Positions 12,938-61,697 of a DNA stretch of 64,000 nucleotides are shown here, piece after piece (the stretch's first letter is position 1; the number at the start of each line of letters is the position of its first letter). Made by a program: the position numbers and the translations under genes. The stretch is taken from IMG/VR virus record IMGVR_UViG_3300046750_000723. One strand, written 5' to 3'. The notes beneath the pieces are model-generated. The model did no database searches, was not told the DNA's origin, and saw only the letters and a program-made list of their open reading frames with translations. This DNA is from an uncultured virus (IMG/VR IMGVR_UViG_3300046750_000723). Taxonomy: Duplodnaviria; Heunggongvirae; Uroviricota; Caudoviricetes.

Positions 12938-12960
12938 CTTAACTTGTTTAATATACTTTA

Positions 12961-12989: not shown

Positions 12990-13025
12990 ATTTAAAGTAA
13001 TCTACTTATTAATGTATTTATATGT

Positions 13026-14147
13026 ATGGGATTAATTGTAAGGGTATTTGATATTGTTTCACCTAATGACTTTGATTTAAGTATTGGGTTGTCACCTTAT
13101 GGACCGTTTACAAAATTAGATGGACCTAGACCTGATAATTCTTGGCCAAACTCTACGGACAGAGACTATAGAACTGAACCAATTTATATTGGTGACAATG
13201 AACCCGAAGTGGTTAATGGTATACCATCATCATCAGAAGTAATATTTTATGATTTAGAATTTGACACCGAATTTTGGTTGAAAATGGAGGATAAAGTAAA
13301 CGTTATAGATGTATGTGAGAACAATCAAACACCAAGGTACATTGTAGAAAACATATACATACATGATAGTAAGACATTTGAATGTTACGATAAGATAAAG
13401 TTTAGTGTATCTTATGAATGTGTACTACCACCAACACCAACACCCGAACCGACACCAACACCCGGACCAACTTCGACACCGGGAATAACCCCAACCCCAA
13501 CACCTACATCAATTGTACTTGATGACGAGACCGAAATTAATATATTCTTTGATAATTCGGGGTCTATGAGTGGTACCAAATCCCCGTTAGATACTATGGC
13601 GAGTACGATTCTTAAAGATTGTTTATTACCATTTTATAACAATGACTCAGCACTGTACGATAGTAGGGTAAGAGTTTTAAATATGTCGGAGGAAGGTTTT
13701 TATGAAAGAAGTTACGGTTGTCTATCAACGACTGGTACAACATCATCAATTACTCAAGTTATAAACTTATCATTTCAAGATGAAGGTGCCTCATCTCTCC
13801 ACGGTAGTACTGGGTGGTCTAACACAGACCCAAGAACTTCCACTTTTGATAATGACATGGTACTTTTAAGAAATAACATTGATAATAATCCACTTAATTA
13901 TATTGTTGGAGAAATTTTCCAAGTCGAAACTAGCACTACTGGACAGTTTTTGTCCTTTAGAAATTTATTGGAAGCGGTTGAAAATGGTTTAGGTAATTAT
14001 AGTGGTGTTAATGGATTATCTGATAAAAGTCAAATACATAATACCTACGGTGTTACTCCATCGAGTACTCCACAATATTATATGGGACTTATAATTACAG
14101 CGATTAATAATTTAGGTTATAGTATACCTGATTGTACAGAAGAATAA
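13026..14147 (+). CDS. Structural protein with PT linker and C-terminal vWA-like domain
   Basis: INIFFDNSGSM is a hydrophobic strand followed by a DxSxS MIDAS motif, directly after the PT linker. Confidence 0.6.
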   Translation: MGLIVRVFDIVSPNDFDLSIGLSPYGPFTKLDGPRPDNSWPNSTDRDYRTEPIYIGDNEPEVVNGIPSSSEVIFYDLEFDTEFWLKMEDKVNVIDVCENNQTPRYIVENIYIHDSKTFECYDKIKFSVSYECVLPPTPTPEPTPTPGPTSTPGITPTPTPTSIVLDDETEINIFFDNSGSMSGTKSPLDTMASTILKDCLLPFYNNDSALYDSRVRVLNMSEEGFYERSYGCLSTTGTTSSITQVINLSFQDEGASSLHGSTGWSNTDPRTSTFDNDMVLLRNNIDNNPLNYIVGEIFQVETSTTGQFLSFRNLLEAVENGLGNYSGVNGLSDKSQIHNTYGVTPSSTPQYYMGLIITAINNLGYSIPDCTEE

Positions 14148-14148
14148 T

Positions 14149-15411
14149 ATGGGGAGAATAGTAAGACTAAATATTTCGTTAGATAACAGTCATTCATTAG
14201 ATGACTTTCCCGTTGATTTATATTCGGGTTTAACAAGTGGGGATACAACTAATTTAGTGTATGCGAATATAGTTAGTGAGGATATACCACTTGATTTAAT
14301 GTTTGAGGATAGTGATTTAAATATTAGTAATGACCCTAATAATCCTTTCGTACCGCACTGTTATATGAGAATATCGTCTGACGGATGTTACGATGAAATA
14401 ATAAAATTGGAGGTACCAAGGGTAGATTGTGAAATATGTGTGGATTTTCAAGAAATCATACCAGAACCAACACCCACTTCAATACCACCAACACCTACTT
14501 CAATACCACCAACACCCACTTCAATACCACCAACGGCAACGGAAGGACCAACACCCACCCCAACACCGACATTACCACCTGGACCTACACCTACTCCAAC
14601 AAGTACACCTACTCCAACACCGTCATCGACACCAGGTGAAAGAGGATGTAGGTTTGTATTTGTACCTGATACTATTAGTACAACAGGGTACGGTTTAGAT
14701 TATGTTCAAAATGGGGTTATAATACTTACACGATTCACTGATATTGCCGGTCAATCGACGACTTATGATGGTGTGGTCGGGACAGTTTTCGGTGTGTGTA
14801 GTGAAACTTACCCACTATATTATGATTTCGATGGTGGGCAAGGTGCAATAACTGACCCGATTGGTGTGGAAAGACCACCAAATGGGGGTAGTTGTAGTAT
14901 TAATAAGAGTTGTATATATACACCCCCAACTCCAACCCCAACAAGTACAGATACACCAACAACATGTAATGAGTACTCATTATATATGACAGGACAAGGT
15001 GAAACGTCTTCACAATGGGAATGGACGACCTGTGGAGGTTCAACCACGACATGGACAAATGTGGGTTCTAACTATAGGGTTGTATGTTCAGAAACAACAC
15101 CGACATTAAATTACGGTGATGGGTTCAGTTTACTTAACGGAGATTGTGGTAATTATACGGTAAGTAGATGTACTGACGGACAACAATTTACTGTTGCTAA
15201 AAATAAGAACTGTATGACAGGTACACCACCAACATATAGTGTTGGAGATGTTATCCAATTCAAACAAATGAACGTTACTAACGGTTCGTGTTATGGTGAG
15301 ACCTATTGTGGTACTATTACCGCCACGGACTCAAATACACCACATAACGCGTTAGCAAGTAGGAACGCAACAGTTGATGATTGTAATGATACAACACATT
15401 GTGGTGAGTAG
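14149..15411 (+). CDS. PT-linker, Cys-rich modular structural protein
   Basis: ORF track; PTPTSIP x3 (21-nt tandem repeat near 14467-14530); Cys-rich modules shared with neighbouring ORFs. Confidence 0.6.
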   Translation: MGRIVRLNISLDNSHSLDDFPVDLYSGLTSGDTTNLVYANIVSEDIPLDLMFEDSDLNISNDPNNPFVPHCYMRISSDGCYDEIIKLEVPRVDCEICVDFQEIIPEPTPTSIPPTPTSIPPTPTSIPPTATEGPTPTPTPTLPPGPTPTPTSTPTPTPSSTPGERGCRFVFVPDTISTTGYGLDYVQNGVIILTRFTDIAGQSTTYDGVVGTVFGVCSETYPLYYDFDGGQGAITDPIGVERPPNGGSCSINKSCIYTPPTPTPTSTDTPTTCNEYSLYMTGQGETSSQWEWTTCGGSTTTWTNVGSNYRVVCSETTPTLNYGDGFSLLNGDCGNYTVSRCTDGQQFTVAKNKNCMTGTPPTYSVGDVIQFKQMNVTNGSCYGETYCGTITATDSNTPHNALASRNATVDDCNDTTHCGE

Positions 15412-15459
15412 TTTTAGAATGAGGATATATTTATATAATAAGAATTAAAAAATCATAGA

Positions 15460-17046
15460 ATGGCAAGAAAGTTTACAGTAACATTAACTAGTGGAACCGA
15501 TCAAGGTCCCTATAATATATACTACGATACCGTATCCGTAGGAACACTTGCAGATCTATTCGGTACATCAAATAAAGCGGAGAATCTAACACTATCCCAA
15601 GTACAATCTGGTGTAGTAATAGAAGTACCCGATAATGCAAATAGTATCATATTCTTTAATACTAATCCCGATGTTGCAACCGACTGTCCAACAAATACAG
15701 AAATTTTTAATTTAACATCCCAACCAACACAAACACCCATACCAACATATACTCCGGTACCAACAGAAACACCAACACCAACACCTACGGATGAGGTCAC
15801 ATGTCAATGTTATGAGTTTATTAACGCAACTACCAATGCTATTTCATATACATATACTGATTGTAGTGGCACAAGTATAGAGGCGGTTTCCGACAAAGAA
15901 CCATGGACATTCTACGTATGTGCTCAAAGTATAGACAGTGTTACTAATAGTAAATTAACATATAGTCTTTACGGTTCATGTTCTGAAGGGGTTTGTGATA
16001 ACATGCCAACACCAATACCAACATATACACCGGTACCAACAGAAACACCGACACCTACACCTACTCCAAGCCCAACGGCAGATAATGTACAGATCAGAAA
16101 TCTAAAATTTGCACACTGTAATACGGTAGAGACCTCACCTGTTAGTGAAGAGGTGGGTACTCAAGCTGCTGGAGGACCATCAGAACCACCTATTTACTTA
16201 ACTACAGATGAATATGGGTCTACACCAACGATAGGGGATACAGTATATGTAAGACTTGATGGTGAGACTAATAATAAATGTTATGAATATATAGGAATAG
16301 AAACAGGGGCTAATGTATCTCTCACTATAATTAATACTTCATGTGTATGTCCGAGTTTAGAACCAACAGAAACACCAACACCAACACCTACAGAAACACC
16401 AGCACCTACAAGTATAGAGGAACCATGTGTTGATATAGAATTTAATGGAAAAAGTGAAACCGTAGGTGGTACTGTTACATATGAAGATTGTGATGGTAAC
16501 ACACGTACTTTAACGGTACCTGGTGGAGATAGTATACCGGCACCTACATGTGTTAGAAATAATTCGTGGACGTACAGTATTCCAGATAACTTCACACCTG
16601 CAACATTAGTAGTAGGAGATTGTGGTAATTCTAATGGATCAGAAGTAACACCAACACCAACAGCCACAAGTAGTAAAGGTGACGTAGGTGGACCAATCGG
16701 AGCGAATGAGTACTACCTCAGTTCGGGTAGATCAGTTTCGAATGATTTCTGTCAAGCACCAGGTTACACCGCCACCAGAGCAATAACATCTTCCGCCACA
16801 TCTATTGGTAATATGTTGAATACTACAGTATATGATGATGGAGATCCAATTGTAGGTAACCCATTACTATTTTATTTTGTATCTGAAAGCCAAGGTGAGA
16901 ACTCAAATGAGACAGTTGGTAATCCACAATACATAAACATTAGTGAACAGGGGGTTGTAACAGACGTAGGTCAAATGTGTGGTTCAGGGACTGGAGAGAA
17001 TCCTTATAGTGAGCCAATCAATCCTACATCAACCCCGACTGAATAA
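15460..17046 (+). CDS. PT-linker, Cys-rich modular structural protein (N-terminus paralogous to 6104)
   Basis: MARKFTVTLTSGT..YNIYYD aligns with [19 protein letters not shown]; VxVPxxAxSI is also shared. Confidence 0.65.
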   Translation: MARKFTVTLTSGTDQGPYNIYYDTVSVGTLADLFGTSNKAENLTLSQVQSGVVIEVPDNANSIIFFNTNPDVATDCPTNTEIFNLTSQPTQTPIPTYTPVPTETPTPTPTDEVTCQCYEFINATTNAISYTYTDCSGTSIEAVSDKEPWTFYVCAQSIDSVTNSKLTYSLYGSCSEGVCDNMPTPIPTYTPVPTETPTPTPTPSPTADNVQIRNLKFAHCNTVETSPVSEEVGTQAAGGPSEPPIYLTTDEYGSTPTIGDTVYVRLDGETNNKCYEYIGIETGANVSLTIINTSCVCPSLEPTETPTPTPTETPAPTSIEEPCVDIEFNGKSETVGGTVTYEDCDGNTRTLTVPGGDSIPAPTCVRNNSWTYSIPDNFTPATLVVGDCGNSNGSEVTPTPTATSSKGDVGGPIGANEYYLSSGRSVSNDFCQAPGYTATRAITSSATSIGNMLNTTVYDDGDPIVGNPLLFYFVSESQGENSNETVGNPQYINISEQGVVTDVGQMCGSGTGENPYSEPINPTSTPTE

Positions 17047-17123
17047 AACATATTGTTAAATTGTTTTTATCGGTTTATTATTCTCTTTCTATTGTATTTA
17101 TATACATAGACTAAATAGATATA

Positions 17124-19061
17124 ATGGGTAATCTTGTAACGGTTAAAAATAATTATGATAATGGAGTGTGTAGTGGGTTTACCATATATACAGGTACAAC
17201 CTATAATGGACACCCATTTACAATACCACCATCAGCAAACAGTATTGGTTTTCATACATTACCACATACTTTTGATATTGGTTTTTATAGTGGGCCATTA
17301 TATGTCTTTTTAGAACATTGTGATAATCATATTTCACCCCCTCCAAATGAAGACCCAAAAAAACAAGGTGGATTCCAAGTAGTATTAATAGATGTTGATT
17401 GTGAAGTATGTCCACCAAACTCAGATGCAATTAATTGTACAATGGTTGTTAGTTTTGTAGAGGAGACGTTAACGGATTGTAATTTCAGTGTTAGTTTTGT
17501 GGAAGGTTCATACCCCACACCTACGGGTACCCCAACAAGTACGGAGACACCTACTCCCACTCCAACAAGTACGGAGACTCCAACACCTACAAGTACAGAA
17601 ACACCCACACCAACACCAATCGTTGTGTCGGACATTGACGTATTTTTAAATAATGGTAGTTCACCGAGTTCGATTTACTCGTATAACCCTAATACTACGG
17701 TATTAACGTATTTATTTGACTCGACTAACTCATCATATGATATTGCAAACACAAGCAATAAATTATGGGTATATGACGGTGGTGCTAGTACTTCATTGTT
17801 AGAATACGACATAACGTTAAATCCTTTCTCCCAAACCTTCAATAGAACTATAACATCAGTATCTTCAAATTCTGGTTTATGTGCAATTAATGACACCACG
17901 TTAATAAACATTGATGGAAGTGATGTTTATGAGTTAGATATAACAACTAATGTTCCTTCCGCAACACTTAAATGGTCGATGATTACAGGAAGAGTGGTTC
18001 AGGGGGATTATATGTACACCACAACAAATAAATTAATTGTTACCAATAACGGTTATATTACTCAGTATGATTATGCCACTGGAACTGTTGAGGTGGATAT
18101 AGACATAAGCGGAACCATACCAAACGCTTACGGGGTATTCGAATATGGGTCAGGTATATATATAGTCGATGTTGGTGGAGAGATTTACCAAATAATGGGA
18201 ACTTCACCTTATACTTTAACATTGGTAGACGATGTACTATTCACGGTATATGGGGCATCTCAAATCCCTTCAAAAATAACCGAAGATTTTACACCCGTCA
18301 CCGAATCAACATCAACACCAACTCCAACAAGTACGGAGACGCCGACACCTACACCTACTAATACACCAACGCCAAGCCCAACAAGTAGTCCAACACCTAC
18401 ACCTACAAGTAGTCCAACACCCACAAGTACAGAAACACCTACCCCTACTCCCACTCCAACAAGTACGGAGACACCTACACCTACACCAACAAGTAGTCCT
18501 ACACCAATACCTACAGATACACCAATACCGACATATACTCCTATTCCAACAGAGACACCAACCCCAACACCTACAGAAACCTGTGTTGATATAGAATTTT
18601 GTTCGAAGGAAGGGACTGCAGGTTCTGAAGTACAATATGAAGGATGTGATGGTATCACATATAATCTATCTGTACCTGGTGGGGATTGTGTACAACCACC
18701 TAGATGTGTTAGAAGTAATTCATGGATATATAGTAATCCAAACAATATGGAACCTGTAACATTACTACCAGGAGATTGTGCAGGATCACCACCACCACAA
18801 ACAGCAACACCTGTACCGACAGCATTACCGACTTGTGTGTGTATAGAGTTTACAAACATTTCAACTGGTGACAGGGCGGGATATTACGATGATTGTAGTG
18901 GAATATCACAAACAGTGGTTGTTGGGTCATATGCGACGGAAAAGGTGTGTGGAGATGGTAACAACATAACAGTATCGGACCCTAAAGTACAATATCAAAT
19001 AACAGGTAATTGTTTTGAAGGTAGTTGTCCTGATAATGATAGAGTAGAAGAACCCAGATAA
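17124..19061 (+). CDS. PT-linker structural protein with beta-propeller-like central domain and Cys-rich modules
   Basis: The central region has repeated propeller-like strands (YDIA..KLWVYD, GDYMY..KLIV, YITQYDY, IYIVD..GEIYQI). The CVDIEF..PGGD..CVR module is shared with 15460. Confidence 0.55.
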
Positions 19062-30776: not shown

Positions 30777-31472
30777 ATGAAACGTTTATTAAACATGGAT
30801 ATCAAAACAGTTGCGATCATCGTGTTATGTGTATTCCTTTTATTAAGAAATTGTTCGAATGGTGATTCCGAGACTCGAGACATAGTTAAGGTTGACGGTA
30901 AAAAGTACGAATTATTAGAACAAAAGGTCGATACCGTAATTATTGAAAAGACTGTTAAAGTTCCAACCTATGTACCGAAGTACATTACTAAAGAGGTAAT
31001 AAAAGAAGTTAAGATTCCTGCAGATATAGATTCATTGGCGGTAGTTAAAGATTACTACACCAAAATAACTGTAAGAGATACATTACAACTTGATTACGAT
31101 TTTCCCGAAGAGGTTAAGGATTCGTTAGGTAATAAACCACCATCTAATTTAGGTTACGGTATTTTGACCGACGTGATTAGTCAGAACTCCATACAATCGA
31201 GAAATGTAAATTGGGTCTTTAAAATACCTACTGTATATAATACTAAAATTGTTAAGGATTTACCTAAAACACAATTGTATTATGGTTTTAATTTAGGTTT
31301 AAATAGAACAGATATCTTCTCAAGTGTCGGAGGAGGACTTATATTGAAGACTAAGAAGGATAAATTATACCAACTTAATATTGGTTTAATAAATCAACCG
31401 ACCCCCACATCAAGTCTTACACCTTACATTGGTGGTGGTATGTATTGGAAGTTAAATCTTAAGAAAAAATAA
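30777..31472 (+). CDS. Membrane-anchored or lipoprotein-like protein (possible spanin-like)
   Basis: N-terminal hydrophobic helix ending LLRNC; C-terminal amphipathic strands (YIGGGMYWKL). Confidence 0.45.
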   Translation: MKRLLNMDIKTVAIIVLCVFLLLRNCSNGDSETRDIVKVDGKKYELLEQKVDTVIIEKTVKVPTYVPKYITKEVIKEVKIPADIDSLAVVKDYYTKITVRDTLQLDYDFPEEVKDSLGNKPPSNLGYGILTDVISQNSIQSRNVNWVFKIPTVYNTKIVKDLPKTQLYYGFNLGLNRTDIFSSVGGGLILKTKKDKLYQLNIGLINQPTPTSSLTPYIGGGMYWKLNLKKK

Positions 31473-31980: not shown

Positions 31981-32793
31981 ATGAACAAAAGCAACAGTTT
32001 TCTAAACACCGAAGAGATAAGTTTCTACCTTAAAGACGTAAAAAAAATACCAACAACCAACAACAAAAGACTTAAAGAAATTATTCATAGTCTTAAACAA
32101 GAAAACATAACCGAAAAAGAAAAATCGGCGTTACAACATGAGTTGGTAAAAGGTAATCTTAGGTTTGTTATTAGTGTTGCTAAACAATATTCAAATCAGG
32201 GGTTAGATTTACCTGATTTAATTTCAGAAGGAAATATTGGTATGATTAGAGCATCTGAAGAATTTGACCCTCATAAAAAAGTCAGATTCATTTCTTATGC
32301 TGTGTGGTGGATTAGACAGGCAATAATGTCTTCTTTGAATGAAAATGCAAGAACAATAAGATTACCATCTAATATTATTCAAGAACATCAGAAAGCAAAA
32401 AGAATGGTAGTTTCTGAAGATGATCCCGATTTTGTGGAAAAATATAACAAACAGGCTTCACAATATGTTCCAAAAACCGTAAGTTTAAGTAATCCTATTA
32501 ATGAAGAAGGTGATCAATTGATTGATATTGTCGTTAATAAGGACTCTCTGAATCCTGAGAGTTATTTGGAAAATGAACAAGAAAGAAAAAAACAAGTGAA
32601 GAACGCTCTATCAATTCTAAACGATAAAGAAAGAACGATAATTGAAAAATACTTTGGATTAAATGGGGTACAATGTAATTTAGAAGACTTGGGTGAAGAG
32701 TTTGGATGTACCAAAGAAAGGATCAGACAGGTAAAAGAAAAGGCAATGAAAAAACTTAGAAACGAGAGTTTTACATTATTAAAATATTTATAA
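31981..32793 (+). CDS. RNA polymerase sigma-70 family factor (Bacteroidota RpoD-like)
   Basis: Region 2 NLRFVISVAKQY..DLISEGNIG..FISYAVWWIRQAI; region 4 TKERIRQVKEKAMKKLR; no region 1.1. Confidence 0.95.
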   Translation: MNKSNSFLNTEEISFYLKDVKKIPTTNNKRLKEIIHSLKQENITEKEKSALQHELVKGNLRFVISVAKQYSNQGLDLPDLISEGNIGMIRASEEFDPHKKVRFISYAVWWIRQAIMSSLNENARTIRLPSNIIQEHQKAKRMVVSEDDPDFVEKYNKQASQYVPKTVSLSNPINEEGDQLIDIVVNKDSLNPESYLENEQERKKQVKNALSILNDKERTIIEKYFGLNGVQCNLEDLGEEFGCTKERIRQVKEKAMKKLRNESFTLLKYL

Positions 32794-32810
32794 TAGGAAA
32801 AAATATAATT

Positions 32811-33113
32811 ATGAAAAAATTTTTAGAAAAACATTTTATCACTGTAGTTTTCGTCATATTACTTTTTACCTTTTTTAGAGGTTGTGGTGATAGTAGAGAA
32901 ATGTCTGCATTGAAAAAAGAAATGGTAGAATTAAAGGAGTTCACCAAAGAAAGAACTTATACTAAAGAACAATTAGATCTAAGATTAAAAATCGAAGGAT
33001 TAAAGAGTGAACATAGAATGATACAGGCAACTGACAGAAAAATGTTTGACTTAAACAGACAAACTCAAATTGAAAAAGAGTTAGAGCTATTACAAAGTGA
33101 ACTTTTAAAGTAG
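32811..33113 (+). CDS. Membrane-anchored coiled-coil protein (possible spanin-like)
   Basis: N-terminal TM ending FFRGC, then a coiled coil. Confidence 0.45.
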   Translation: MKKFLEKHFITVVFVILLFTFFRGCGDSREMSALKKEMVELKEFTKERTYTKEQLDLRLKIEGLKSEHRMIQATDRKMFDLNRQTQIEKELELLQSELLK

Positions 33114-34328
33114 ATGGGTAAATGGTTGAAGAATAACTTTAGGTTATTAATTTATATTTCGTTTTTAGTTCCGATCATAACGGTAGCGATAGTTTCTATA
33201 TCTCACGTTACTGTATGGTATGGTATATCTAATCCAATGTCATGGGCATTATATCTATCAATAGGGATAGAGATTGCCGCATTATCCGCATTGGCCGCCA
33301 TCTCGGCTCAAATGGGATCTAAAGTTTATGTACCCTTTGGTATTGTTACCTTAATACAGTTTATTGGTAATATTTTCTTCGCATTTGAATTCATTAAAAT
33401 AGGTAATGAACAGTTTCTCTCTTGGGTAGAGTTAACAGGACCAATATTGGAATACATTGGTATAGAACAAGGGGACTTACAATCACATAGAAGATTCTTA
33501 GCGATATTTGCGGGTGGTATGTTACCACTAATTTCATTATCATTCCTACACATGTTAGTAAAATTTAATGAGGAGAATAATGTTGATGCAACTAAAGAGG
33601 AGAACGGAGAAGACACTAAAAAAGTAATTGAAGAAGAAACAAAAATAAAACCCACTAATGAAGAATTAGATAAGTTAGAACACTTATTAAACAAATTCAA
33701 ACCAGAGGAAAGAGTCGAACCACCAACACCCGACTTACCTGATGAAGCGAGAGGTTTTGAACCACCTTCAAAAGTAGAAGATGTCTTTGATGAAAAACCA
33801 CCTGAGTGGTTTACTGAACAACCTCCAATAAGTGATGAGGAATTGGAACAATGGGCTAAGGAATCTGAAGACGAGTGGGACGAAGATCATGCATTAGATA
33901 TGGTAATGAATGATATGGTTCAAGATTTAACAGAGGAGGACCTTAAAGAAATTGAGGTTAACGAACCTGAAGAAGTGAAAGAAGAACCTACCCCTAATAA
34001 AGTCTCCAATAGATATGAACAAAGAAGTGATTATTTAACTAAAAGTACTGATTGGGATTCAAAAGAAAAGGAAGGTATATTACCAGATACAATAGAAACT
34101 GCGGAGTTAGATTTACAGACAGGAGAAATTTCGACACCCACACCAAAGAAAGAGGTTAGTGTTGATATAGATGAAAATCAATTTACCCCAAAGAATGATT
34201 TTGATGTCGATGTGGAGATAAAACCATCACCCACACCAACCCCCACTACTTCACCATTTCCAAACTTCGTTGTTGGAAAAATACAAGACGAATTGCAGGA
34301 TCAAACAGAACCTGAAAAAAAAAATTAG
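33114..34328 (+). CDS. Multi-pass membrane protein with long acidic C-terminal tail; ends at an A10 run
   Basis: About four hydrophobic segments in the first 150 aa; E/D/P-rich tail; ends GAA AAA AAA AAT TAG. Confidence 0.7.
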
Positions 34329-34723
34329 AAGAAGTACTACCTACAGGAACCCAAATTCCAACATTGACTTCGGTACCTTTTAATACTCCCACACCTTACC
34401 CCACAAGTACGGTAATTCCAACTAGTACACCACAACCTACACCTTACCCCACAAGTACGGTAATTCCAACTAGTACACCACAACCTACACCTTACCCCAC
34501 AAGTAGTCCTACACCAAACCCTACTAATACTCCAACTCCCACACCCACGGTAAGTGGTACACCCACACCAACTCCAACCAATACACCTACACCATCACCC
34601 ACAGTATTTGTGGACGACCTTTATATGGAACCTAAAGTTATACCACAAGAACCATATATGATGGTAGGGTCAAAAGTAATCACTAGAAATGTTGGAAATT
34701 CGAGACGTAGAAACAATAGATAA
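34316..34723 (+). CDS. PT-rich -1-frame extension of the upstream membrane protein (no ATG start of its own)
   Basis: The frame of ORF 34364..34723 is open from TGA 34313-34315, through the A run, giving [29 protein letters not shown]... Confidence 0.55.
34391..34505 (+). repeat. Exact 48-nt tandem repeat (about 2.4 copies), encoding [16 protein letters not shown]
   Basis: acaccttaccccacaagtacggtaattccaactagtacaccacaacct repeated without mismatch. Confidence 0.9.
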
Positions 34724-35294
34724 AAAAAAATTAAACCACATTGGTAGAAAATATAAAAAGAAACAAATTCTTTTATATGATACTAAACGTAGGATTGATG
34801 ACTTTGTCGGTAAATTAAAATATAGACAAGATGGTAATTATGAGGATATTCCTCATTTTATTGTTTCTAAGATGGGGGACATATACCAAGTTTTGGACAT
34901 GGATTATTCTTCAGTTACGTTTGGTAATCATGAATTAGACAAAAAACAAGTTAAAATTGCGGTTGAAAATTTGGGGTGGTTACAAAAGAACACTATAACG
35001 GGTTATTATAGTAATTGGATAGGTGACCCCCATAGAAGTGACCCATTTATTAGAAGTTGGAGAGATAAATTTTATTGGGATCGTTATACTGACCAACAAA
35101 TGGAAAGTATTGTTAATTTATGTGAATATATCTGTGAAGAGAAACAAATACATAAAAGAGTGGTTCCCAGTCACGGTTACATAGAAAAGATAGATAAATT
35201 TAAAGGAATTGTATGTAAATCCAATTTTTCAAATATTTATACAGATATAAACCCTTCGTTTAATTTTAAAAAATTCTTAGACGATGAAATATAA
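34689..35294 (+). CDS. N-acetylmuramoyl-L-alanine amidase-like (Amidase_2) protein, possibly degenerate
   Basis: [29 protein letters not shown] and DINP are amidase-fold features; the expected His ligands are not evident. Confidence 0.6.
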
Positions 35295-42184: not shown

Positions 42185-42206
42185 TTTATAGTTTATTATA
42201 TAAAGT

Positions 42207-42728
42207 ATGGGTAGTTATTGGTATTTAGTAAAAGTACTGCCAGGTAAAGAGAGACAACTTAAAGATAAATTCAATTCGGATATTGAGTTGGGTAACATCA
42301 GAGGAATAAAAGAATTTGTTTGTCCATTAGAGAAAGAACTTAAAATGGTCAAAACAAAGAAAGTCGTAAGAGAAAAAGTAATATACACAGGTTACTTATA
42401 TTTTAATACGGATGAACTTCTAACAGAAGACGATCTAACTAACTTGTCCTACTTACCTGACACCATGAAAGTTTTGGGGGACAAAAGACCGATAAGAGTC
42501 AGAGATAGGGAAATTCAAAGGGTTCTAAAAAATGGTCAAGAAGGTCAGGAAATCGTAAGTAGTATACAATACAACATAGGTGAAACAATTAAGGTTATTG
42601 ACGGACCGTTTAACACCTTCGATGGTGAAATCAGATCTATAAATGGTGATAAGGTTGATGTAGATGTTAAGGTTTTTGGTAGACCTACCAAAGTTACGTT
42701 ATCAAAAGAACAGATAGATAAATTATGA
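42207..42728 (+). CDS. nusG: Transcription elongation/antitermination factor NusG-like
   Basis: NGN domain (WYLVKV..GKE, YTGYLY) and KOW domain (GETIKVIDGPFNTFDG..VFGRPT). Confidence 0.9.
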   Translation: MGSYWYLVKVLPGKERQLKDKFNSDIELGNIRGIKEFVCPLEKELKMVKTKKVVREKVIYTGYLYFNTDELLTEDDLTNLSYLPDTMKVLGDKRPIRVRDREIQRVLKNGQEGQEIVSSIQYNIGETIKVIDGPFNTFDGEIRSINGDKVDVDVKVFGRPTKVTLSKEQIDKL

Positions 42729-44789: not shown

Positions 44790-47700
44790 ATGGCATTACA
44801 ACAAATATATTGGGAACAAATTGCGACCGAGGATATAACCTCAGGACAAACGGTAAATTTAGGTAACCCGACAGCGTCTTTGAAGAATGTTTATGCGGAT
44901 AACTTCTTTATAAACGGTACACAAAGTTTAAATGATTTAATTGGTGGAGGAATAACCGAAGGGATTGACCCTTTAAATCAATTTAGTGCTTCGGTTTTAA
45001 CGTCTTTAGAATTTACAGGTTCAAATATGACCGTTAAAGGTGATTTGAATGTCTTAGGAACATATACCTCTATTAAATCGGAAACGGTCACCTTAGATGA
45101 TAATATCATTGAATTAAATGGTACTGACAAGGCGTTTGGTGGTTTATTAATAAAAGACCCCACAAACCCTAATTTAGTTTCAGGATCATTGTTGTGGGAT
45201 ACAACAACTGATAGATGGGTTGGAGGACCTTTAGGGTTAGAAGAAAATATAGTAATAGAGAGTGAATTAACAACTCTTTCATCTTCAATATCATCTTCTA
45301 TAAACGAATTATCACAATCAGTATCCTCATCATTTGATCAGGTTAATACGGATTTAACAGATTTATCGTCTTCAGTGTCGTCATCGATTAATGATTTATC
45401 ACAATCAGTGTCGTCGTCGTTTGACCAAGTCAATACAGATTTAACAGATTTATCCTCATCATTATCATCATCAATAAATGAATTATCTTCATCTGTCGAC
45501 TCTACGTTTACTCTACATGACGGTAGGTTAGTTGACTTAGAGTTATTTAGTTCTTCATTAGATGCAACATTTGCAACGGACCAACAATTAACGGATTTAT
45601 CACAATCAATCACCTCATCAATAGGTGATCTATCGTCTTCATTAGATGGTAGGGTTGTGAATTTGGAGGACTTTAGTTCTTCATTAGACGCCACATTCGC
45701 GACAGACCAACAATTAACAGACTTATCGTCTTCATTATCAGGATCAATAAGTGAATTGTCCTCATCATTATCATCATCAATAAATGATTTATCACAGTCA
45801 GTATCCTCATCTTTTGATCAGGTTAATAATGACCTAACTGATTTATCATCGTCATTATCATCTTCGATAAACGAATTATCACAATCGGTTGATTCCACAT
45901 TCACATTACATGATGGTAGGTTAGTCGAATTAGAAACGACAGGGTCTGATCATGAAACAAGGATTGATGGTTTAGAATTATTTAGTACTTCTTTAGATAA
46001 CACTTATGCGACAGACCAAGAATTAGAAGACATTTCCGCATCTTTAAGTGATGCTATTGGTAATGCACAAACAGATATCGAAGCAAGTAATATATTCCAA
46101 CAAACAGGTTCATATTATGGTACATCTGAAAATTTACAAATATCGGGTAGTGGTTTAGATTCACCCGATGGTTCTATAACAGGAAAATATGGTGTAATTG
46201 TGTCAAAATCATTACATGCAGAAAATATTAACGTGGGTCAACCCACTTCAAATGATTGGGGGACCATGAATGGTTCATATTTTAATAATTTTAATGAAAA
46301 CACAGACGTTTCGGAGATTATTAGGTTTATGGCGGGGTTATTATCCTCTTCAGCACCTGATGCCTCTCCAAACACCAAATATTATAACGGATATACTAAA
46401 AACACATTTAATACATCAACAGATTCGGGTATTGGTGGATATCTTCCTTCAGGAACAACAAATACAACACTAATTGACCTTATTGATAGTGGATTTGCTA
46501 GTATTGGTGGAACAATCTTAGGGTCATTCGGTACTTTTTATACAAATAGTAATTATAGACACTCATTTACAAGTAGATACGGTGGTTCAACAACTGTTAG
46601 ATCATCAAATGATGGTAATTTATTTGGTTTAGGTAGATTAAGTAGCGGAACACCCACAACGTTTAAAGTTTCAGGATCTTTTACGTTTAAAAAATTCGAC
46701 CATAACAGAGTTTTATTGGAAGAATCAAGTTCTAATCATTTAATAATACAATCTGGTGCGGGAACAACTAATGGAGTTACTCTTGGTAAGATTGAATCGG
46801 CAAATCCTGAATTAATTCCCGCAGGGTATCAAGACGGTAAATATAGTGGAGTCTTTAGTCCAACAATTTTAAATGCTGGTAATACTATAGACGATATTGG
46901 GTATTACCATATATCAAGTTCGATATCTATAGCAAGTGGGTCAAGTGATTTTACCACACCAATAGAGAGTAATACTGAGATACTATATGGACCAATGCCG
47001 ACAATTGAAAGTGGTATAGGGTCAACTAATTTAGGTGTTTCGGCAAATATTGATTCTATGGAACAATTAACCGCAACATCAAGATCTTTAAGTGGGGCAC
47101 CATACTTACAAACGGCAACGTTTAACGCGAGTGGGTCCATTGGGGGTACATTTAATAAGTTGTACCAAAACGGTACACACGGTTCAATGTCAGGTAATAG
47201 TGGTCAAAGAACTGCAAGTGTCTCTAACGGTAGAATATCAACAAGTAATGTGTTTTATGATGAAACATTTACAGATTTAAGGTCGAGTGGTACAATTCCA
47301 CACATTAATGATAAAATAAAACTTAATTCAGGTTTGAGTTGGAGTGCGGGTAATTCGTATGGTACCTCAGCTAACCAGTCGGTTTCAATAAGTGGAGCCG
47401 GATTCGGTGGAAGTAGGTCTGATTCTGAAAGTAGGTCCGTACACATAGCGGGAACGTTTGGACAACCGGCATCAAGTGGTAGTTTACATTATTATGGTAG
47501 ATCACAAACATACGATGGTTCATCTAACACTTCTGAAAATTTTACGGGTGAGGGTAGAAGATTAGAACTGAATGATAATTTACTTTCATTTGGTGGAACT
47601 TCTTGGGATAACACCTATAATGAATATGGTATTTTGGGTCCTAAAGATTTACAAGTAAGACCTAACCGTTTAGTTAAACCAGGTGGTAACAATGGATATT

Positions 47701-48149
47701 GGTTAACTAACCCAAGTAATAGTAGTGATTATAAGTATTATGTTAGAAAATTTTCCACATCAGGAACAAAAACAAGTATGAGTATTAATGTAGGTGGAAC
47801 GTCTTTAGTTTCATGGGACTCAACAAATAATAACTCAGCATCTGTGGTAATACTATTTGAATCTTCTACAACTAATGTTTATGCAAACGCAAGATTTTAT
47901 GACCCAACTAAAACATTAGAAAATTTTGTTGGATCAATAAGTTCTAACACAGATGGTACTAACCCATTTGGTTTAGATATAGATTTGTACGGTAATACAG
48001 GTGGATCGGGTTCAGGGGGTTCATATTCTTTACCTATGAGAAATTCAGACGGTATGTTCCTGAATTCAACCTATAATGAAATTATGGTATTGGTTAGATA
48101 CAAAGGGGACCCAACACCCATAACAAGTTTAAGTGTAAGTTTTAGTTAA
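44790..48149 (+). CDS. Tail fibre-like structural protein with Ser-rich coiled-coil repeats
   Basis: DDNIIELNG...SGSLLWD module; LSSSxSSSINxLSQSV repeats; S/T/G-rich C-terminal region. Confidence 0.65.
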   Translation: MALQQIYWEQIATEDITSGQTVNLGNPTASLKNVYADNFFINGTQSLNDLIGGGITEGIDPLNQFSASVLTSLEFTGSNMTVKGDLNVLGTYTSIKSETVTLDDNIIELNGTDKAFGGLLIKDPTNPNLVSGSLLWDTTTDRWVGGPLGLEENIVIESELTTLSSSISSSINELSQSVSSSFDQVNTDLTDLSSSVSSSINDLSQSVSSSFDQVNTDLTDLSSSLSSSINELSSSVDSTFTLHDGRLVDLELFSSSLDATFATDQQLTDLSQSITSSIGDLSSSLDGRVVNLEDFSSSLDATFATDQQLTDLSSSLSGSISELSSSLSSSINDLSQSVSSSFDQVNNDLTDLSSSLSSSINELSQSVDSTFTLHDGRLVELETTGSDHETRIDGLELFSTSLDNTYATDQELEDISASLSDAIGNAQTDIEASNIFQQTGSYYGTSENLQISGSGLDSPDGSITGKYGVIVSKSLHAENINVGQPTSNDWGTMNGSYFNNFNENTDVSEIIRFMAGLLSSSAPDASPNTKYYNGYTKNTFNTSTDSGIGGYLPSGTTNTTLIDLIDSGFASIGGTILGSFGTFYTNSNYRHSFTSRYGGSTTVRSSNDGNLFGLGRLSSGTPTTFKVSGSFTFKKFDHNRVLLEESSSNHLIIQSGAGTTNGVTLGKIESANPELIPAGYQDGKYSGVFSPTILNAGNTIDDIGYYHISSSISIASGSSDFTTPIESNTEILYGPMPTIESGIGSTNLGVSANIDSMEQLTATSRSLSGAPYLQTATFNASGSIGGTFNKLYQNGTHGSMSGNSGQRTASVSNGRISTSNVFYDETFTDLRSSGTIPHINDKIKLNSGLSWSAGNSYGTSANQSVSISGAGFGGSRSDSESRSVHIAGTFGQPASSGSLHYYGRSQTYDGSSNTSENFTGEGRRLELNDNLLSFGGTSWDNTYNEYGILGPKDLQVRPNRLVKPGGNNGYWLTNPSNSSDYKYYVRKFSTSGTKTSMSINVGGTSLVSWDSTNNNSASVVILFESSTTNVYANARFYDPTKTLENFVGSISSNTDGTNPFGLDIDLYGNTGGSGSGGSYSLPMRNSDGMFLNSTYNEIMVLVRYKGDPTPITSLSVSFS

Positions 48150-48154
48150 GAGAC

Positions 48155-49363
48155 ATGGCATACGATAAGAATATAAAATCATCAAGGTTCCTCCAAAGTA
48201 AGAGGTATACACACAACAACCTACTAGATTCACAAGAATCATTCACTTCTGTATTGGATTTAAATAGTAGTGAAATTTATGTTGACCAAAGTCTCATACC
48301 TTCTTCAAACTTACCATTTAATGGTAGTTCAGATCACTTATCTGTCTATACCGATAGTGATACAAGTTTAGATGTATTAAAATATTGGTACAGACATAAA
48401 TTAACTAAATCTGATTTAAATAGGGAGGTTTGGTTTTTCTTAGATCCCGTCGGTTCAAATGACGGTATAGGGGCACAGTTGATTAGTAATGATCAAGAAG
48501 TAAATTTCATTTCACCAAAATATGCCATATCAGGTTTGGCAAACTCAACAGTTGAGGATTCCACACCAGGTTATTTAATTAAACTTTTTGTTTCAACTAA
48601 TTCTTCCTCCCCATCAAATAGTGATTTAAGACAACCATCTACCTATTCTTTTGATTACAAAACAGGTGTAGTACAATTTATAAGTGGTACCCCTTCAAGT
48701 AATCAATATGTATACATGAGTGTTTACCAATATGTTGGTAGAACATTAAGTGACCAATTAGGTGGAGGTGGTGCTAGTGCTATACAAGATATATTTAAAC
48801 CTACAGGTTCATTTTATGCCACTACGAATGACATACAGATAAGTGGATCTTTAGATTTAACAGGAGACTTTACTGTACATGGAACTGTAACCTCATCATT
48901 ATCTGAGACGGTTATCGTTAATGATAATATTATAGAGTTAAACGGTAACGAATCTAATTTTGGTGGATTAAGTATTAAAGACACAGTAAATCCTAATACC
49001 GTATCAGGTTCTTTATTATGGGATGCTACGAATGATCAGTGGATTGCGGGTCAAGAGGGAAGTGAATTACCAATTGCAAGACAAGACGATTTAGTATGGG
49101 GTAATTCAGGTTCATATTGGTCATCAACAAGTGATCTACAAGTAACTGGCTCGGTCATAATAAAAGGAGACTTAAAGGTTGAAGGACAAACAACATTACA
49201 ATCGCAAGACATAACTCAAGATTCATTAATTGTGTCGGGTGCGATGAGTATATTAAAAAATCAAATAGAGAATCAAATAAGGTCCGCATCACTAAACATT
49301 GAAAACTTAGGATCGATAGGAGATATTAATAATAATTCTGTCATGGACCTTGGTGGTTTCTAA
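48155..49363 (+). CDS. Tail fibre-associated structural protein
   Basis: FDYKTGVVQF...YQYVG domain; shared NDNIIELNG module; C-terminal DLGGF. Confidence 0.6.
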   Translation: MAYDKNIKSSRFLQSKRYTHNNLLDSQESFTSVLDLNSSEIYVDQSLIPSSNLPFNGSSDHLSVYTDSDTSLDVLKYWYRHKLTKSDLNREVWFFLDPVGSNDGIGAQLISNDQEVNFISPKYAISGLANSTVEDSTPGYLIKLFVSTNSSSPSNSDLRQPSTYSFDYKTGVVQFISGTPSSNQYVYMSVYQYVGRTLSDQLGGGGASAIQDIFKPTGSFYATTNDIQISGSLDLTGDFTVHGTVTSSLSETVIVNDNIIELNGNESNFGGLSIKDTVNPNTVSGSLLWDATNDQWIAGQEGSELPIARQDDLVWGNSGSYWSSTSDLQVTGSVIIKGDLKVEGQTTLQSQDITQDSLIVSGAMSILKNQIENQIRSASLNIENLGSIGDINNNSVMDLGGF

Positions 49364-49417
49364 TATTCAAGATATTTATAATAATAAATCAAATAAAGAC
49401 AAAATTTAAAAAAGAAG

Positions 49418-51559
49418 ATGGCTCAAATTATTAAACACAGAAGAGGTTCGATAGACAGTGTAAAGGCAACAACCACAAGAAATGGTGAAGTCTTGATAGC
49501 GTCAGGATCGATCTCAGATTTAGCTGGACCTTTCGTATTTGTTGGGTCACCCGTTTCTAGTGACGAAGGAGTCGCCGGAGCGTTCAAACCAACATCAAAA
49601 ATATATTCAGGAACCAATGCACCCACAATAGGTGTTGGTACTTACGGATCAATTTTAGACGGAACTCCATTTTACGCGTCAGGAGACGAATCATTATACA
49701 TATTAAATAATGATGGAGTTGGTAATGACAGGGTAGATTTAACAGGTAACATAGAGGGTAATTTAATTTCTAATGTAACAATAACATCACTTACAGGTTC
49801 TAACGCTAACCTAACAAATGTAACTGGTGGTACGGTAACCGTAACAGGAAATCAAACTATCGGTGGAACTTTAGGAGTTACGGGAGCAACAAACCTAGGA
49901 GATAGTTTAGGGGTTGCTTTAACTGCGACTGTAGGAAAATTAGTTTCGGAAGGAGAAATTACGGGTTCAAATCTTAGACTTACGGGAGATGCGGACATTG
50001 CAGGAAATATAAACTTAGGTGGAAATATTAGTGTTGGTGATGCATCAACAGACTTTGTTTCATTTGGTGCGGATATATCATCTTCATTCATACCAGATGT
50101 AAATGACGCATTTGATTTAGGTTCTACAACTAAGGCATGGAGAGAATTATACGTAAGTGGAACGGCACACATTCAAGACTTAAACCTTGAAGGTGGATTA
50201 TCTGTAAATAGTTTGGCTCTACCAGGTGACTTAACGGTATCGGGAACTACAGACTTAAAAGGTAACGTTACTTTAGGTGATGCAAGTTCGGACACAATTA
50301 CTGTAAATTCGGGAGACATTGAATTATCAAATATTCCTGACGGAGATACAGCAATCTTTATTGGTTTAGACGGAAATAACAAATTAGTACAAGACACATT
50401 AGACTCAAGGGTACAAGGAGAGACATTACTTGATAATAATGGTACACCATTAACTGCTAACAGAATACCTTTCGCAGTTGACGGAGACTCATTACAGGAT
50501 GACGCTGATTTAACATACAACTCAACAACTAATGTTATTAGTGTGGGTAGTTCAACAATTGGTAACGATATATCTGCGGCAAGTTCATTAACTTCGGTAG
50601 GTACTACGGAACTAAAAGGTGCGGTCGGAATTAATTCAACACTAAACGTTACAGGTTCTGCACAATTAAAATCTAGTTTAGATGTTGATGGTGAATCTAC
50701 ATTAGCAAGTGCAATCGTAGAAGATTTAACATCAGGTAGAGTAGTATTAGCAGGTACGGGAGGAGCAATTGAAGATAGTTCAAAGTTAACATTTGACGGA
50801 TCAACATTAGACGTAACTGGTGATGTTGAAGCATCAGGTGATTTAGGTGGTGCCACGGCAACCATCACAGGTAATTCTACTATAGGTGGAACACTTGGTG
50901 TAACAGGTAATACTGAAATTGATGGAACATTAACAGTTAATGATAATGTAACAATATCAGGTAACTTAGAAATATTAGGTACGGCTACCGAAGTGAATAT
51001 ACAATCACAAACAGTCGAAATCGATGACAATATTATTAAATTAAACGCATATTCACCATTTGAAAGATACGCAGGTTTTGAGGTTATGGATTCAGGATCT
51101 TCAGGTGTATCTGCATCTTTAGTATGGGATTCACAAGATGACCATTGGATGTTTGTTTCTTCATCAGGAAAATCAAGTAAATTACTTGGGACAACTGCGG
51201 GAGCTTACGGTTCGGAAAGTAGTTTAGGAATTGGTTCAATACCTGTAGCAACAGGTAAGAACACTATGGGTGATTCTTTACTTACTGATGATGGTAGTGT
51301 ATTGGCATATAACACAAACAAATTTACAGTTGATAAAGACACTGGTTCTACTTTAATTGCGGGTAACGTAACACTTAGTGGTGGTGGTGGACTTGATTCG
51401 GGAAATACTACTTCAAAAATTGTATTTAGAAATTCAAGTAGTGAAATAGGTTATATAACGAGTACAGGAACAACTGATGTTTTAGACGGTATCTTAGGTT
51501 ACAAATCAAGTGATGGATCTTTAGTATTTTCTACCGTTATTGATGGAGGAACTTACTAA
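49418..51559 (+). CDS. Tail fibre-like protein (beta-helix-like repeats)
   Basis: MAQIIKHRRG..GE N-terminus; IGGTLGVTG repeats; C-terminal IDGGTY. Confidence 0.65.
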   Translation: MAQIIKHRRGSIDSVKATTTRNGEVLIASGSISDLAGPFVFVGSPVSSDEGVAGAFKPTSKIYSGTNAPTIGVGTYGSILDGTPFYASGDESLYILNNDGVGNDRVDLTGNIEGNLISNVTITSLTGSNANLTNVTGGTVTVTGNQTIGGTLGVTGATNLGDSLGVALTATVGKLVSEGEITGSNLRLTGDADIAGNINLGGNISVGDASTDFVSFGADISSSFIPDVNDAFDLGSTTKAWRELYVSGTAHIQDLNLEGGLSVNSLALPGDLTVSGTTDLKGNVTLGDASSDTITVNSGDIELSNIPDGDTAIFIGLDGNNKLVQDTLDSRVQGETLLDNNGTPLTANRIPFAVDGDSLQDDADLTYNSTTNVISVGSSTIGNDISAASSLTSVGTTELKGAVGINSTLNVTGSAQLKSSLDVDGESTLASAIVEDLTSGRVVLAGTGGAIEDSSKLTFDGSTLDVTGDVEASGDLGGATATITGNSTIGGTLGVTGNTEIDGTLTVNDNVTISGNLEILGTATEVNIQSQTVEIDDNIIKLNAYSPFERYAGFEVMDSGSSGVSASLVWDSQDDHWMFVSSSGKSSKLLGTTAGAYGSESSLGIGSIPVATGKNTMGDSLLTDDGSVLAYNTNKFTVDKDTGSTLIAGNVTLSGGGGLDSGNTTSKIVFRNSSSEIGYITSTGTTDVLDGILGYKSSDGSLVFSTVIDGGTY

Positions 51560-51585
51560 AAACTAAATTAAATATTTATTACACA

Positions 51586-51617
51586 AAAATCCCTTGAGAA
51601 ATCAGGGGATTTTCTTT
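51586..51617 (+). terminator. Intrinsic terminator
   Basis: AAAATCCCTTGA-GAAA-TCAGGGGATTTT followed by CTTT. Confidence 0.75.
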
Positions 51618-51715
51618 ATATATTGATATTAAGTAGTATTTATAATAAAGATCTATATAGATCATAATAAAAGTGATAGATATCACTATAAATACATTTA
51701 GAGAGATCCATATAT

Positions 51716-54700
51716 ATGGGACAGACAGTTAAACTGCGTAGAAGCGCTATATCCGGTAAGATTCCGATTAATTCACAACTACTACTTGGTGAATTATCCA
51801 TGAATACAACCGACGGTAAGATTTTCTTATCAAAATCAGGTTCAAACGGACCTTCCGTCGAAGAAGTAATAATCACAAACACACAAAATTTTGGTAATAT
51901 TGACTTAGTTGGCGATTTAACGGCAACTAATATCAGTTCATCCTTTATTGGTGATGGTGGTGGACTTTATAATATTCCTGCATCAGGAGTTACGGGTCTT
52001 AGTTTAGATCGAATAGCGAGTTCAACCTCCACAGCATCTATTGATGCGGATGGTTTACATATTAATACGGATACTACAGTAACAGGGTCTCTCACAGCAA
52101 CAGAATTTACAGGTAGTGGTTTAGGTTTAACAGATGTGCCAATTAAAATCTCAGGATCAGACGCGGGATCGACTTCTATCGATTCTACGTTCACAAGAAT
52201 TAAATTCGATGATTCAACAGGTATAAAAATAAGTGGTACCACAGGTGGTGATGCGGTTGTATTCCTTTCAGGGGTTGCCTCGGAATCGGACGGTGGAGAA
52301 GGTAAAACTGCAAAGTTAGAAGTTACAAGTGCAACAAGTACATGGACATTAAATCACAATTTAAACGAAAAACACCCCTCTATTGAGGTTTTTGACAGTA
52401 ATGATGAGGTTATTATCCCACAGAAAATAGAGGCAACAAGTGTTAATCAAGTGGTTGTTAGTTTTGCATCACCTCAAACAGGTACTGTAACGGCAACTGT
52501 CGGTGGTGGATTACCATCAATTGACTCAGGATATGAGAATAGAGTTTTATCGGTAGATAATAATGGTATTGCAACTTGGAAAACAGGAATACTTAGTGGA
52601 TCTATTGATTTTTCCACTTTAGTTGATACTGGTTCCTTTAACACATACACATCATCAAATGATAACACAAATAGTAATCAAAATGGTAGATTAGATAGTC
52701 TTGAGGAATTCACTTCAAGTATTGACGATACTTATGCTACGGATAATGATGTTACAACACTCAGAACCGATTTAAATACATACACATCATCAACCGATGG
52801 TAGATTAGATTCTTTAGAGACAACAAGTGGATCAAGTAATCTAAGGTTAGATTATATAGAGTCCGTCACTTCTTCACATCACGGCAGATTAAACAGTTTA
52901 GAGACAATAAGTGGGTCCCATGACGGTAGGTTAGATAGTATTGAATCTAAAACGGGGAGTTTCCTTGTTTCTAACGACCTTTCAACAATAGAAGGGAAGA
53001 TTGGGTCTTTAGAAACAACTTCAGGTTCTCATGAGGGAAAACTAAGTAGTTTAGAAACAACAAGTGGTTCACATGATGGAAGATTAGATTCTTTAGAAAC
53101 AACTTCAGGGTCCCACGATGGAAGATTAACCGATCTTGAAACTTTTGAGACTAAAGTTGATACAGGGTTGGAGTTTACAGGTTCAAACGTAACAATAAAG
53201 GGTAATTTATTAGTTAAAGGGACAGAAACAAGGGTAGATTCAACCACAGTAGACATTGACGATAACATTTTATCACTTAATGGTAGTGGTGCGGCAAATG
53301 CGGGTATAGAAGTAAGAGATACGGAGTCCCCAGGTGTTTTATCGGGTTCTTTAATATACGATACGGGTGAAAATACTTGGAAAGCGGGTACTAAAGGAAG
53401 TGAAGAAAGATTACTAATTAATAGTGATCTTACAACATTAGATGGTAGGTTAGATAGTTTAGAATCTACTAGTGGTTCCCACGAAGATAGAATTGATAGA
53501 ATTGAAATATCAACGTCCTCACTAAATTCATTTACGAGTAGTATTAATACCACAATTAAGGGTAAATTAAATAACGATGGTGTAATAAGTGGTTCTATAC
53601 AGATAGATCATGATGCGACCACAAATTACGTAGGTAATGAACACATTGACCACTCATCCATAACAATTGGTAGTGGTAAGGGTCTAACTGGTGGAGGTAC
53701 TATCGATACAAATAGGAGTTTAACTCTCGATACTGGATCGGTACACTTCTTAAGTGGTGTAAAATCTAAATTAAATACTGAAACAGTTGTAAGTGGTTCC
53801 GCACAAATAGATATAACAGGAACTACAAATTATAATTTAGTTGATGGTAGATTAGATAGTATTGAATCTTTTACAAGTAGTATTGATTTAACATATGCCA
53901 CGGATGATGATGTAACAGACTTAAGAAATGATTTAAATACATACACATCATCTAACGACGACACAAACAGTACACAGAATGGTAGATTAGATAGTATTGA
54001 ATCGAGTACGGGTAGTTATCTAACATCATATAATGACGAATACACTACAGGGGCGACTTTTAGTACTTCAAATGGTGTTGTAACATTTACAAGAAATGAT
54101 GGTGATCAATACACGGTCGATCTTGATGGTAGGTATTTAACTTCATTTACAGAAACAGACCCAATATTTACTGCACACGCAGTTTATGACATTACATCAA
54201 CTCAAATAGGTAATTGGGACACCGCATATGGATGGGGTGATCATTCACAAGAAGGATATCTTACAACATACAATAATGAGTATACAACGGGGGCCACATT
54301 TAATGGATCCAACGGTATTATTACTTTCACAAGAAATGATGGAGATACTTACACCCTTAATATTAGTAGTACTTTAACTGACATAAATGTTACTGGTGGT
54401 ACATATAATGACTCAACCCAAACACTAAGACTTAATAAATCAAATGGTACTTCTATTGATGTAACTGGATTTGCGGTGGACACCGTACTTCACACAACAG
54501 GAGCAACATTTAATTCAAGTAATGGTGTGGTTACCTTTACTAAGAATGGTGGGGATACGTACACCGTTGATCTTGATGGAAGATACTTAACCTCATTCAC
54601 AGAAACGGATCCAATATTTACGGCACATGCGGTTTATGACATTACTTCTACCCAAATATCAAATTGGGATACCGCATACGGATGGGGTAACCATGCTAGT

Positions 54701-61693: not shown

Positions 61694-61697
61694 CGAT

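Follow-up and report, generated by a model that had tools for sequence, protein, structure and literature searches.

A hairpin-flanked A10 tract as a candidate site of programmed transcriptional slippage in T4-like jumbo phages

A run of ten As in a membrane-protein gene of a T4-like jumbo phage is, judging from sequence comparison, probably a site of programmed transcriptional slippage by the host RNA polymerase. In the window (the whole 64,000-nucleotide stretch of uncultured-virus DNA analysed here) the site reads CCT GAA AAA AAA AAT TAG. Its ten As at 34315-34324 are the sole A10 and the longest A run in the window, and a single run of at least ten As occurs both in the closest virus record, of 143 kb, and in a relative of 184 kb. 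The 0-frame gene (33114-34328, 404 aa) stops at the TAG at 34326-34328, directly behind the run, as an earlier note on this DNA had described. The -1 frame is closed by a TGA at 34313-34315 and then stays open for 135 codons (34316-34720), up to a stop at 34721-34723; the same note held that this frame has no upstream ATG, and indeed its first ATG is codon 104 and its first TTG codon 17. Adding one A to the run (A11, or the equivalent A8) gives a computed product of 536 aa, and the loss of one A or the gain of two (A9 or A12) leads instead into a short tail in the +1 frame. The features that matter for what follows are:

32811..33113, + strand: ORF for a predicted lipoprotein with a coiled coil, 100 aa, abutting the membrane-protein gene
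33114..34328, + strand: 0-frame membrane-protein gene, 404 aa, with a four-helix domain (aa 1-156) and an acidic low-complexity tail
34296..34314, + strand: RNA hairpin, its last base directly before the A run (z = -2.6; 4/200 shuffles as stable)
34315..34324, + strand: candidate A10 slippage tract (A9-11 in 63/120 distinct loci)
34326..34328, + strand: 0-frame stop TAG, unslipped product 404 aa (stop 0-7 nt past the run in 63/63 split loci)
34324..34383, + strand: +1-frame basic tail, 19 codons, predicted product of about 422 aa (selection test, frame rotation)
34316..34723, + strand: -1-frame extension, predicted product 536 aa, with PT repeats, an LY[W/M/L/S]E motif and a basic end
34689..35294, + strand: Amidase_2-like gene, 201 aa, its presumed zinc-binding histidines replaced (Pfam PF01510, E 1.3e-8)

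Distribution of the site

The 176 loci collected reduce to 120 distinct ones once seven genes that run off their contig, L176 (a partial match that is unrelated) and identical copies (170 rows to 120) are left out; L178-L257 mostly repeat earlier contigs, and their 10 further run-less proteins stand outside the counts. The gene is split at 63 of the 120 loci, where a run of A9-11 is followed 0-7 nt later by a stop and the -1 frame is open. Among these 63 the run is A9 in 2, A10 in 49 and A11 in 12, never falling below nine As, and the 57 complete -1 extensions span 33-151 codons. Homologues ending in EKKN or EKKK with a -1 continuation are present, a point that the earlier note had proposed to check. 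The interruption is not shared by all: 52 loci lack the run and encode short proteins, and five carry long genes that are in frame and yet bear two internal A9-10 runs each. In these in-frame genes slippage would shorten, not lengthen, the protein. Two A9-10 runs in the tail region are found in L026, L138, L027, L175 and L040, and also in L051 and L052.

In a tree of the membrane domain the split genes fall into two groups, one marine and one freshwater, with identity down to 67%, and the in-frame genes are nested at three places. Because the loci are related, with two changes between run and no run on this tree, the counts given here overstate their independence. The tree of the neighbouring amidase-like proteins separates run-bearing from run-less loci with a support of 1.0, which suggests that the slip site probably arose once among the run-bearing loci of the main set. 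Hairpin, A10 and stop are likewise present in the distant homologue L177; its -1 frame is 66 codons long, with a stop codon that overlaps the start of the amidase gene. In L177 a 591-codon ORF (1224-2999) is inserted between the lipoprotein-like and membrane-protein genes. Among distant protein representatives 36 of 150 end in KK[K/N], a pattern count that includes some chance matches, and the phage collection yielded one match only, an unannotated 462-kb record at 32% identity.

Alternative frames and the flanking hairpin

The -1 frame is under selection as coding sequence. In 16 disjoint close pairs, with the overlap with the next gene excluded, substitutions fall on its codon positions 1, 2 and 3 in 80, 109 and 183 cases, respectively (third positions 183/372), and 45% of the changes are synonymous in this frame vs 16% and 23% in the other two. 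Furthermore, in each of the four pairs with a net indel, its length is a multiple of three. The PT-rich character attributed to the extension holds in 28 of the 57 complete extensions (P+T fraction 0.36-0.48) but is clade-specific, the other 29 lying at 0.08-0.23. At 34385-34500 of the window the -1 frame contains a 16-residue repeat, where the X9 and X16 contigs break or differ in copy number.

The +1 frame is selected as well. It is basic, and at 45 of 48 distinct sites it stays open for at least 12 codons past the run, vs 29 expected; its mean length is near the null (21.6 vs 18.8), and for marine-clade sequences the null itself is long. Among freshwater pairs, 40 of the 69 substitutions inside the +1 tail are at its third positions, and over both groups the +1-synonymous changes amount to 43/80 inside the tail vs 41/291 beyond it (Fisher p 2e-12, a statistic that ignores kinship). 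In the marine clade of the window the +1 overlap has changed at 12 of 497 sites vs 222 of 2365 elsewhere, four times more rarely, and although this low rate fits double coding, an RNA element could equally cause it. Thus the two isoforms proposed earlier, of 404 and about 536 aa, are supported but incomplete: with the +1 frame also selected three products are predicted, the third of about 422 aa.

A similar tail is found one frame off in the in-frame genes of L027/L175 and L040 (0 and 4 of 500 shuffles), with a near-immediate stop in the third frame; read from these frames, the three outcomes are kept there in rotated form. A comparison of the tails of L026 and L138 and of 8 protein ends with the +1 tails showed no clear resemblance (14 of 500 shuffles at best), and L011, L056, L073 and L177 are without a +1 tail. 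Four proteins (P0133, P0147, P0162 and P0164) continue after EKKK into an in-frame tail of 13-25 residues and may represent further rotated states; their likeness to the +1 tails, judged on proteins only, is not significant.

Directly 5' of the run lies a hairpin. In the window it has a 6-pair stem, with its z of -2.6. Across sites, hairpins no more than 2 nt from the run were scanned against a null of synonymous-codon sequences, and their mean stability is -5.0 kcal/mol vs -1.3 kcal/mol in that null, with values below the null mean in 41/45 sites and p<=0.05 in 23/45. Compared with controls from within the gene, the best abutting hairpin is more stable than the control mean at 49 of 50 sites, and a stability of -3 kcal/mol or better is reached at 37 of 45 sites vs 4 of 44 other runs of at least nine As. 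Stem pairs alternate among A-U, U-A, G-C and C-G across lineages. The hairpin is weak or absent at 8 of the 45 sites, and at most runs of the in-frame genes. On the 3' side, a scan without pseudoknots found no consistent stem-loop stimulator (mean z -0.3, n=50; window z -0.38). Shine-Dalgarno-like words upstream of the run occur at scattered distances, within the hairpin arms. An intrinsic terminator was considered at the site and none was called; the minus-strand T run precedes the hairpin.

Slippage by the polymerase and its alternatives

The window appears to come from a marine jumbo phage. Profile searches identify genes for sigma-70, ClpP, SbcD/Rad50-like, Dam and NusG-like proteins, the records that contain window sequence are marine or viral metagenomes, and four of five related records of 311-336 kb contain a T4-type Gp23 capsid. 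I was unable to find an RNA polymerase beta subunit in any of the five related records searched, three of them near-complete, which suggests that the host polymerase transcribes the gene and favours its slippage over a ribosomal shift. The absence of a clear Shine-Dalgarno sequence at 18 gene starts, together with one contig binned as Flavobacteriaceae that carries a homologue, suggests that this host belongs to the Bacteroidota. At 42204-42728 the window encodes a NusG/LoaP/UpxY-like factor that could affect host-polymerase slippage; lambda N does so according to a title in the reference list of PMC4256274.

In the proposed mechanism, the polymerase would copy the A10 while the nascent-RNA hairpin directly behind it loosens the RNA-DNA hybrid, and part of the transcripts would lose or gain As at the run. 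Normal translation would then yield three proteins that share a four-helix membrane anchor and an acidic tail, namely one of 404 aa from A10, probably the majority, one of about 422 aa with a basic tail from A9 or A12, and one of 536 aa from A11 or A8. Ribosomes would reach the amidase-like start only via the longest frame, and the slip may thereby tune the output of that gene through translational coupling.

Slippage by the polymerase is favoured because of the nine-A floor, the abutting hairpin, the lack of a 3' stimulator, the use of both alternative frames and the frame rotation. The earlier note had left the choice between a ribosomal -1 shift and the polymerase open, and it is the 5' hairpin and the two-way frame use that tilt it to the latter. 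Bacterial RNA polymerase slips efficiently at nine As or Ts, the threshold cited for its slippage, to give mixed lengths, and A_AAA_AAG shifts E. coli ribosomes far better than A_AAA_AAA (PMC5009743). However, the case for the polymerase is weakened by two points: upstream hairpins, which attenuate ribosomal -1 shifts, also stimulate +1 shifts (PMC6321510), and the E. coli polymerase slips less on A runs than on T runs (PMC6260861).

Programmed ribosomal frameshifting, with a -1 shift at A_AAA_AAA, a +1 or -2 shift for the short tail and help from pausing at the stop codon, appears rather unlikely in the face of the features that favour the polymerase. It would draw on the fixed phase of A AAA AAA in 63/63 sites with a stop within 7 nt, on the finding that +1 shifts of 70S ribosomes are promoted when an upstream hairpin refolds (PMC6321510), and on the fact that certain phage ribosomal shifts work without a stimulator (review). 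A peptide spanning the junction cannot separate the ribosomal -1 shift from polymerase slippage, because both yield an identical product sequence. Contigs of the three RNA runs X15-X17 cover parts of the gene and of the extension; none bridges the A run, and they count on neither side.

The tract might alternatively be phase-variable, as suggested earlier, with replication slippage producing A9, A10 and A11 genotypes that each encode one tail. This would likewise explain selection on all three frames, and P0089 is the in-frame long form of an otherwise split strain type, while five loci and further representatives are in frame. Against it, among the best 120 of 4335 protein matches 102 end at the run (KK[K/N] plus no more than three residues), 17 have other ends, P0089 is the one long in-frame form and none has a +1 tail. 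A search for long proteins with this tail returned P0089 alone, with one member on one contig, and of 26 members listed for two clusters 24 end in EKKN (the remaining two resemble fragments), although assemblies hide minority alleles. A genome state at about 1% would hardly hold two frames under selection, so phase variation is decidedly improbable.

Could the -1 frame be a small gene in its own right, with a start of its own, or a mere spacer for the amidase-like gene, and the A run a by-product of lysine codons? A TTG at codon 17 does open a 119-aa ORF in the window, but the first 10 codons of the -1 frame contain no ATG, GTG or TTG in 63/63 split loci, no start occurs before codon 26 in 38/63, and natural in-frame fusions exist. 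A spacer would be compatible with the conserved end motif, which overlaps the start codon of the next gene. Indeed, the basic end described earlier is present, but since its motif contains the ATG of the amidase-like gene, within the 35-nt overlap with that start, its conservation is not independent evidence; the RNV...RRR end was rejected as a sign of tail function for this reason. The LY[W/M/L/S]E motif, however, lies outside the overlap and is kept in 45 of the 57 extensions. As for lysine codons, they avoid such runs elsewhere in the loci, and the run therefore exceeds chance: KKK is coded by As throughout in 17 of 273 cases vs about 40% expected, and EKK[N/K] peptides (leaving out the own sites of in-frame genes) are coded as A10 in 0 of 22 vs 41% expected. 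These readings are highly improbable.

Finally, although homopolymers are error-prone, an assembly error splitting one continuous gene, the other alternative of the earlier note, is excluded for practical purposes, since the interruption is identical in 63 distinct loci with membrane-domain identity down to 67% and recurs in the distant clade of L177, the identical 404-aa protein is found on 45 contigs (the largest 304 kb), 12/12 members of that exact protein's cluster end in EKKN, and where an A11 or A8 would have given a single ORF, the five loci with identical 20-nt flanks all read A10, as does the DNA-run contig X9, possibly from the source sample, which covers 32700-34420 with no difference or gap.

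The cassette and its place among known systems

As had been noted, this is not the usual tail-chaperone context, in which a soluble chaperone is encoded between the major tail and tape-measure genes, the gene here encoding a four-helix membrane protein between lipoprotein-like and amidase-like genes. The protein has four hydropathy peaks and a tail with a net charge of -45; AlphaFold models aa 1-156 as a four-helix bundle (pLDDT 92.6), whereas the full-length model is poor (pLDDT 57.7). Invariant polar residues of the membrane domain are H31, E53, Q82 and N86. Pfam, PHROGs, NCBIfam, a PDB sequence search and the ESM Atlas gave no family for this domain, the first three of these gave no holin match for the protein, and the best VIA-align hit (Z 9.7) was to a designed helical bundle, a generic likeness with no clear solved fold. 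Four membrane helices and a basic N-terminus (N-in topology) would probably place the tails in the cytoplasm, and the PT stalk envisaged earlier would thus not be external.

Four membrane helices are also a feature of DUF2637/SpdB2-like proteins, two groups that I take to be linked. Fold likeness to DUF2637-type phage proteins is weak (BFVD; TM 0.56-0.64, E 0.02-0.1; TM 0.42 for phiC31 gp25), the scores lying within the range of generic helical bundles, and the DUF2637 profile (PF10935) matched 0 of 51 members scanned at E 0.01. SpdB2 forms pores that give T7 lysozyme access to the wall (PMC4447253).

Upstream of the gene, 109 of 110 loci tested have an ORF that is longer than 80 aa and contains a Cys among residues 1-40. 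In the window this 100-aa ORF (32811..33113) has sub-threshold family matches only, and its product may be a lipoprotein. A 231-aa ORF at 30777-31472, with an N-terminal hydrophobic stretch plus cysteine and a beta-strand-like C-terminus, has no family match and is possibly an outer-membrane partner of the cassette. Further away, at 2-19061 and 44790-64000, very long ORFs of up to 2942 codons stand head to tail; some consist of PT-rich repeats, and they are probably virion or tail-fibre proteins.

Downstream, the -1 frame overlaps the amidase-like start by 35 nt in the window, and it ends on or beside that start in all 55 scorable loci: the overlap is 32-38 nt in 52 of the 55 split loci, two more were scored with an upstream ATG and one falls 4 nt short. 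In run-less loci the overlap with the amidase-like start is 8 nt in 39 of 46. The last translated frame thus ends at the amidase-like start in every architecture, which suggests coupling. An A9 at 34722-34730, in frame at the 5' end of the amidase-like gene, begins inside the -1 frame stop codon; it was rejected as a second slip site, being present only in the closest relatives (L001 and L094).

At the positions that I take to be the zinc ligands of the amidase-like protein, on the basis of Amidase_2 motifs, the first histidine is Asp in 60/60 run-bearing loci and His in 43/43 run-less ones, and the second is replaced in 52/52 and kept in 40/40, respectively. The loss of the histidines is one lineage event; the L177 protein retains the first of them. 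With these ligands replaced, a plain holin-endolysin reading is weak. My preferred guess is an envelope complex, in which a predicted non-catalytic, wall-binding partner would be combined with tails in a set ratio. The guess draws on an analogy with tssM1, which depends on both of its forms and on the ratio between them (PMC4256274).

The mechanism is already known, and the site would work like the slippage sites of tssM1, dnaX and IS630. In tssM1 of Citrobacter rodentium and tssM3 of Yersinia pseudotuberculosis, as here, a poly-A tract lies shortly before a stop in a membrane-protein gene; the tssM1 tract has 11 As and gives a short and a long form, and slippage lengthens the product of one gene and shortens that of the other (PMC4256274), much as in split and in-frame loci. 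TssM is, however, an unrelated protein of a bacterial secretion system, made in two forms, with slippage rare among tssM genes, and the word "hairpin" is absent from the text of that paper (PMC4256274). The present site belongs to a phage gene family, its 5' hairpin is conserved and a third frame is under selection. Roseiflexus IS630 resembles the phage site in the nascent RNA stem-loop 5'-adjacent to its slip motif, which enables slippage, but differs in its T5C5 motif, one specific deletion and a transposase product (PMC5009743), where the phage gene would gain and lose As in an A tract. Thermus thermophilus dnaX and Shigella mxiE, mxiA, spa13 and spa33 also have at least nine As or Ts and give mixed mRNA lengths with a fixed product ratio; these genes are chromosomal or plasmid-borne, and the available text of both sources describes no selected product in both alternative frames (PMC5009743, PMC4256274).

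Phages provide C-terminally extended forms as well, in lambda gpG/gpGT and the capsid and tail extensions of T7, T3, A2 and PSA, but those are ribosomal and belong to virion-assembly genes (PMC5009743). Unlike them, the present site lies in a membrane-protein gene with an amidase-like neighbour, and its run requires nine As or more. In the editing of paramyxoviruses and filoviruses, one site opens all three frames. There, in paramyxovirus P/V and the filovirus glycoprotein, the polymerase stutters at one editing site (review). Those enzymes are RNA-dependent polymerases of animal viruses, whereas here a bacterial DNA-dependent polymerase would stutter on phage DNA. To my knowledge, almost all recoding described in phages is ribosomal and affects virion genes, and a literature search that covered mainly open-access papers turned up nothing on this gene family, nor on programmed transcriptional slippage within any phage gene.

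Tentatively, and with less than even confidence in the whole, I suggest that in a widespread aquatic jumbo-phage family a hairpin-driven stutter of the host polymerase serves as a three-way switch with each frame selected. Three membrane-anchored isoforms would be made in a set ratio, coupling would meter the non-catalytic, wall-binding amidase-like partner, and lineages would rotate the default frame and so retune the ratio. If true, DNA phages would offer a conserved instance of programmed transcriptional slippage, the equivalent, with a bacterial polymerase, of the three-frame editing of RNA viruses. Dozens of natural hairpin and A-tract variants make slippage stimulators, which are poorly known, testable in reporters. 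The two selected tails escape gene callers, and many of the family's thousands of database proteins (4335 matches) are annotated in their shortest form only. What the site points to is recoding at the level of the polymerase, maintained in jumbo phages of sea and fresh water alike.
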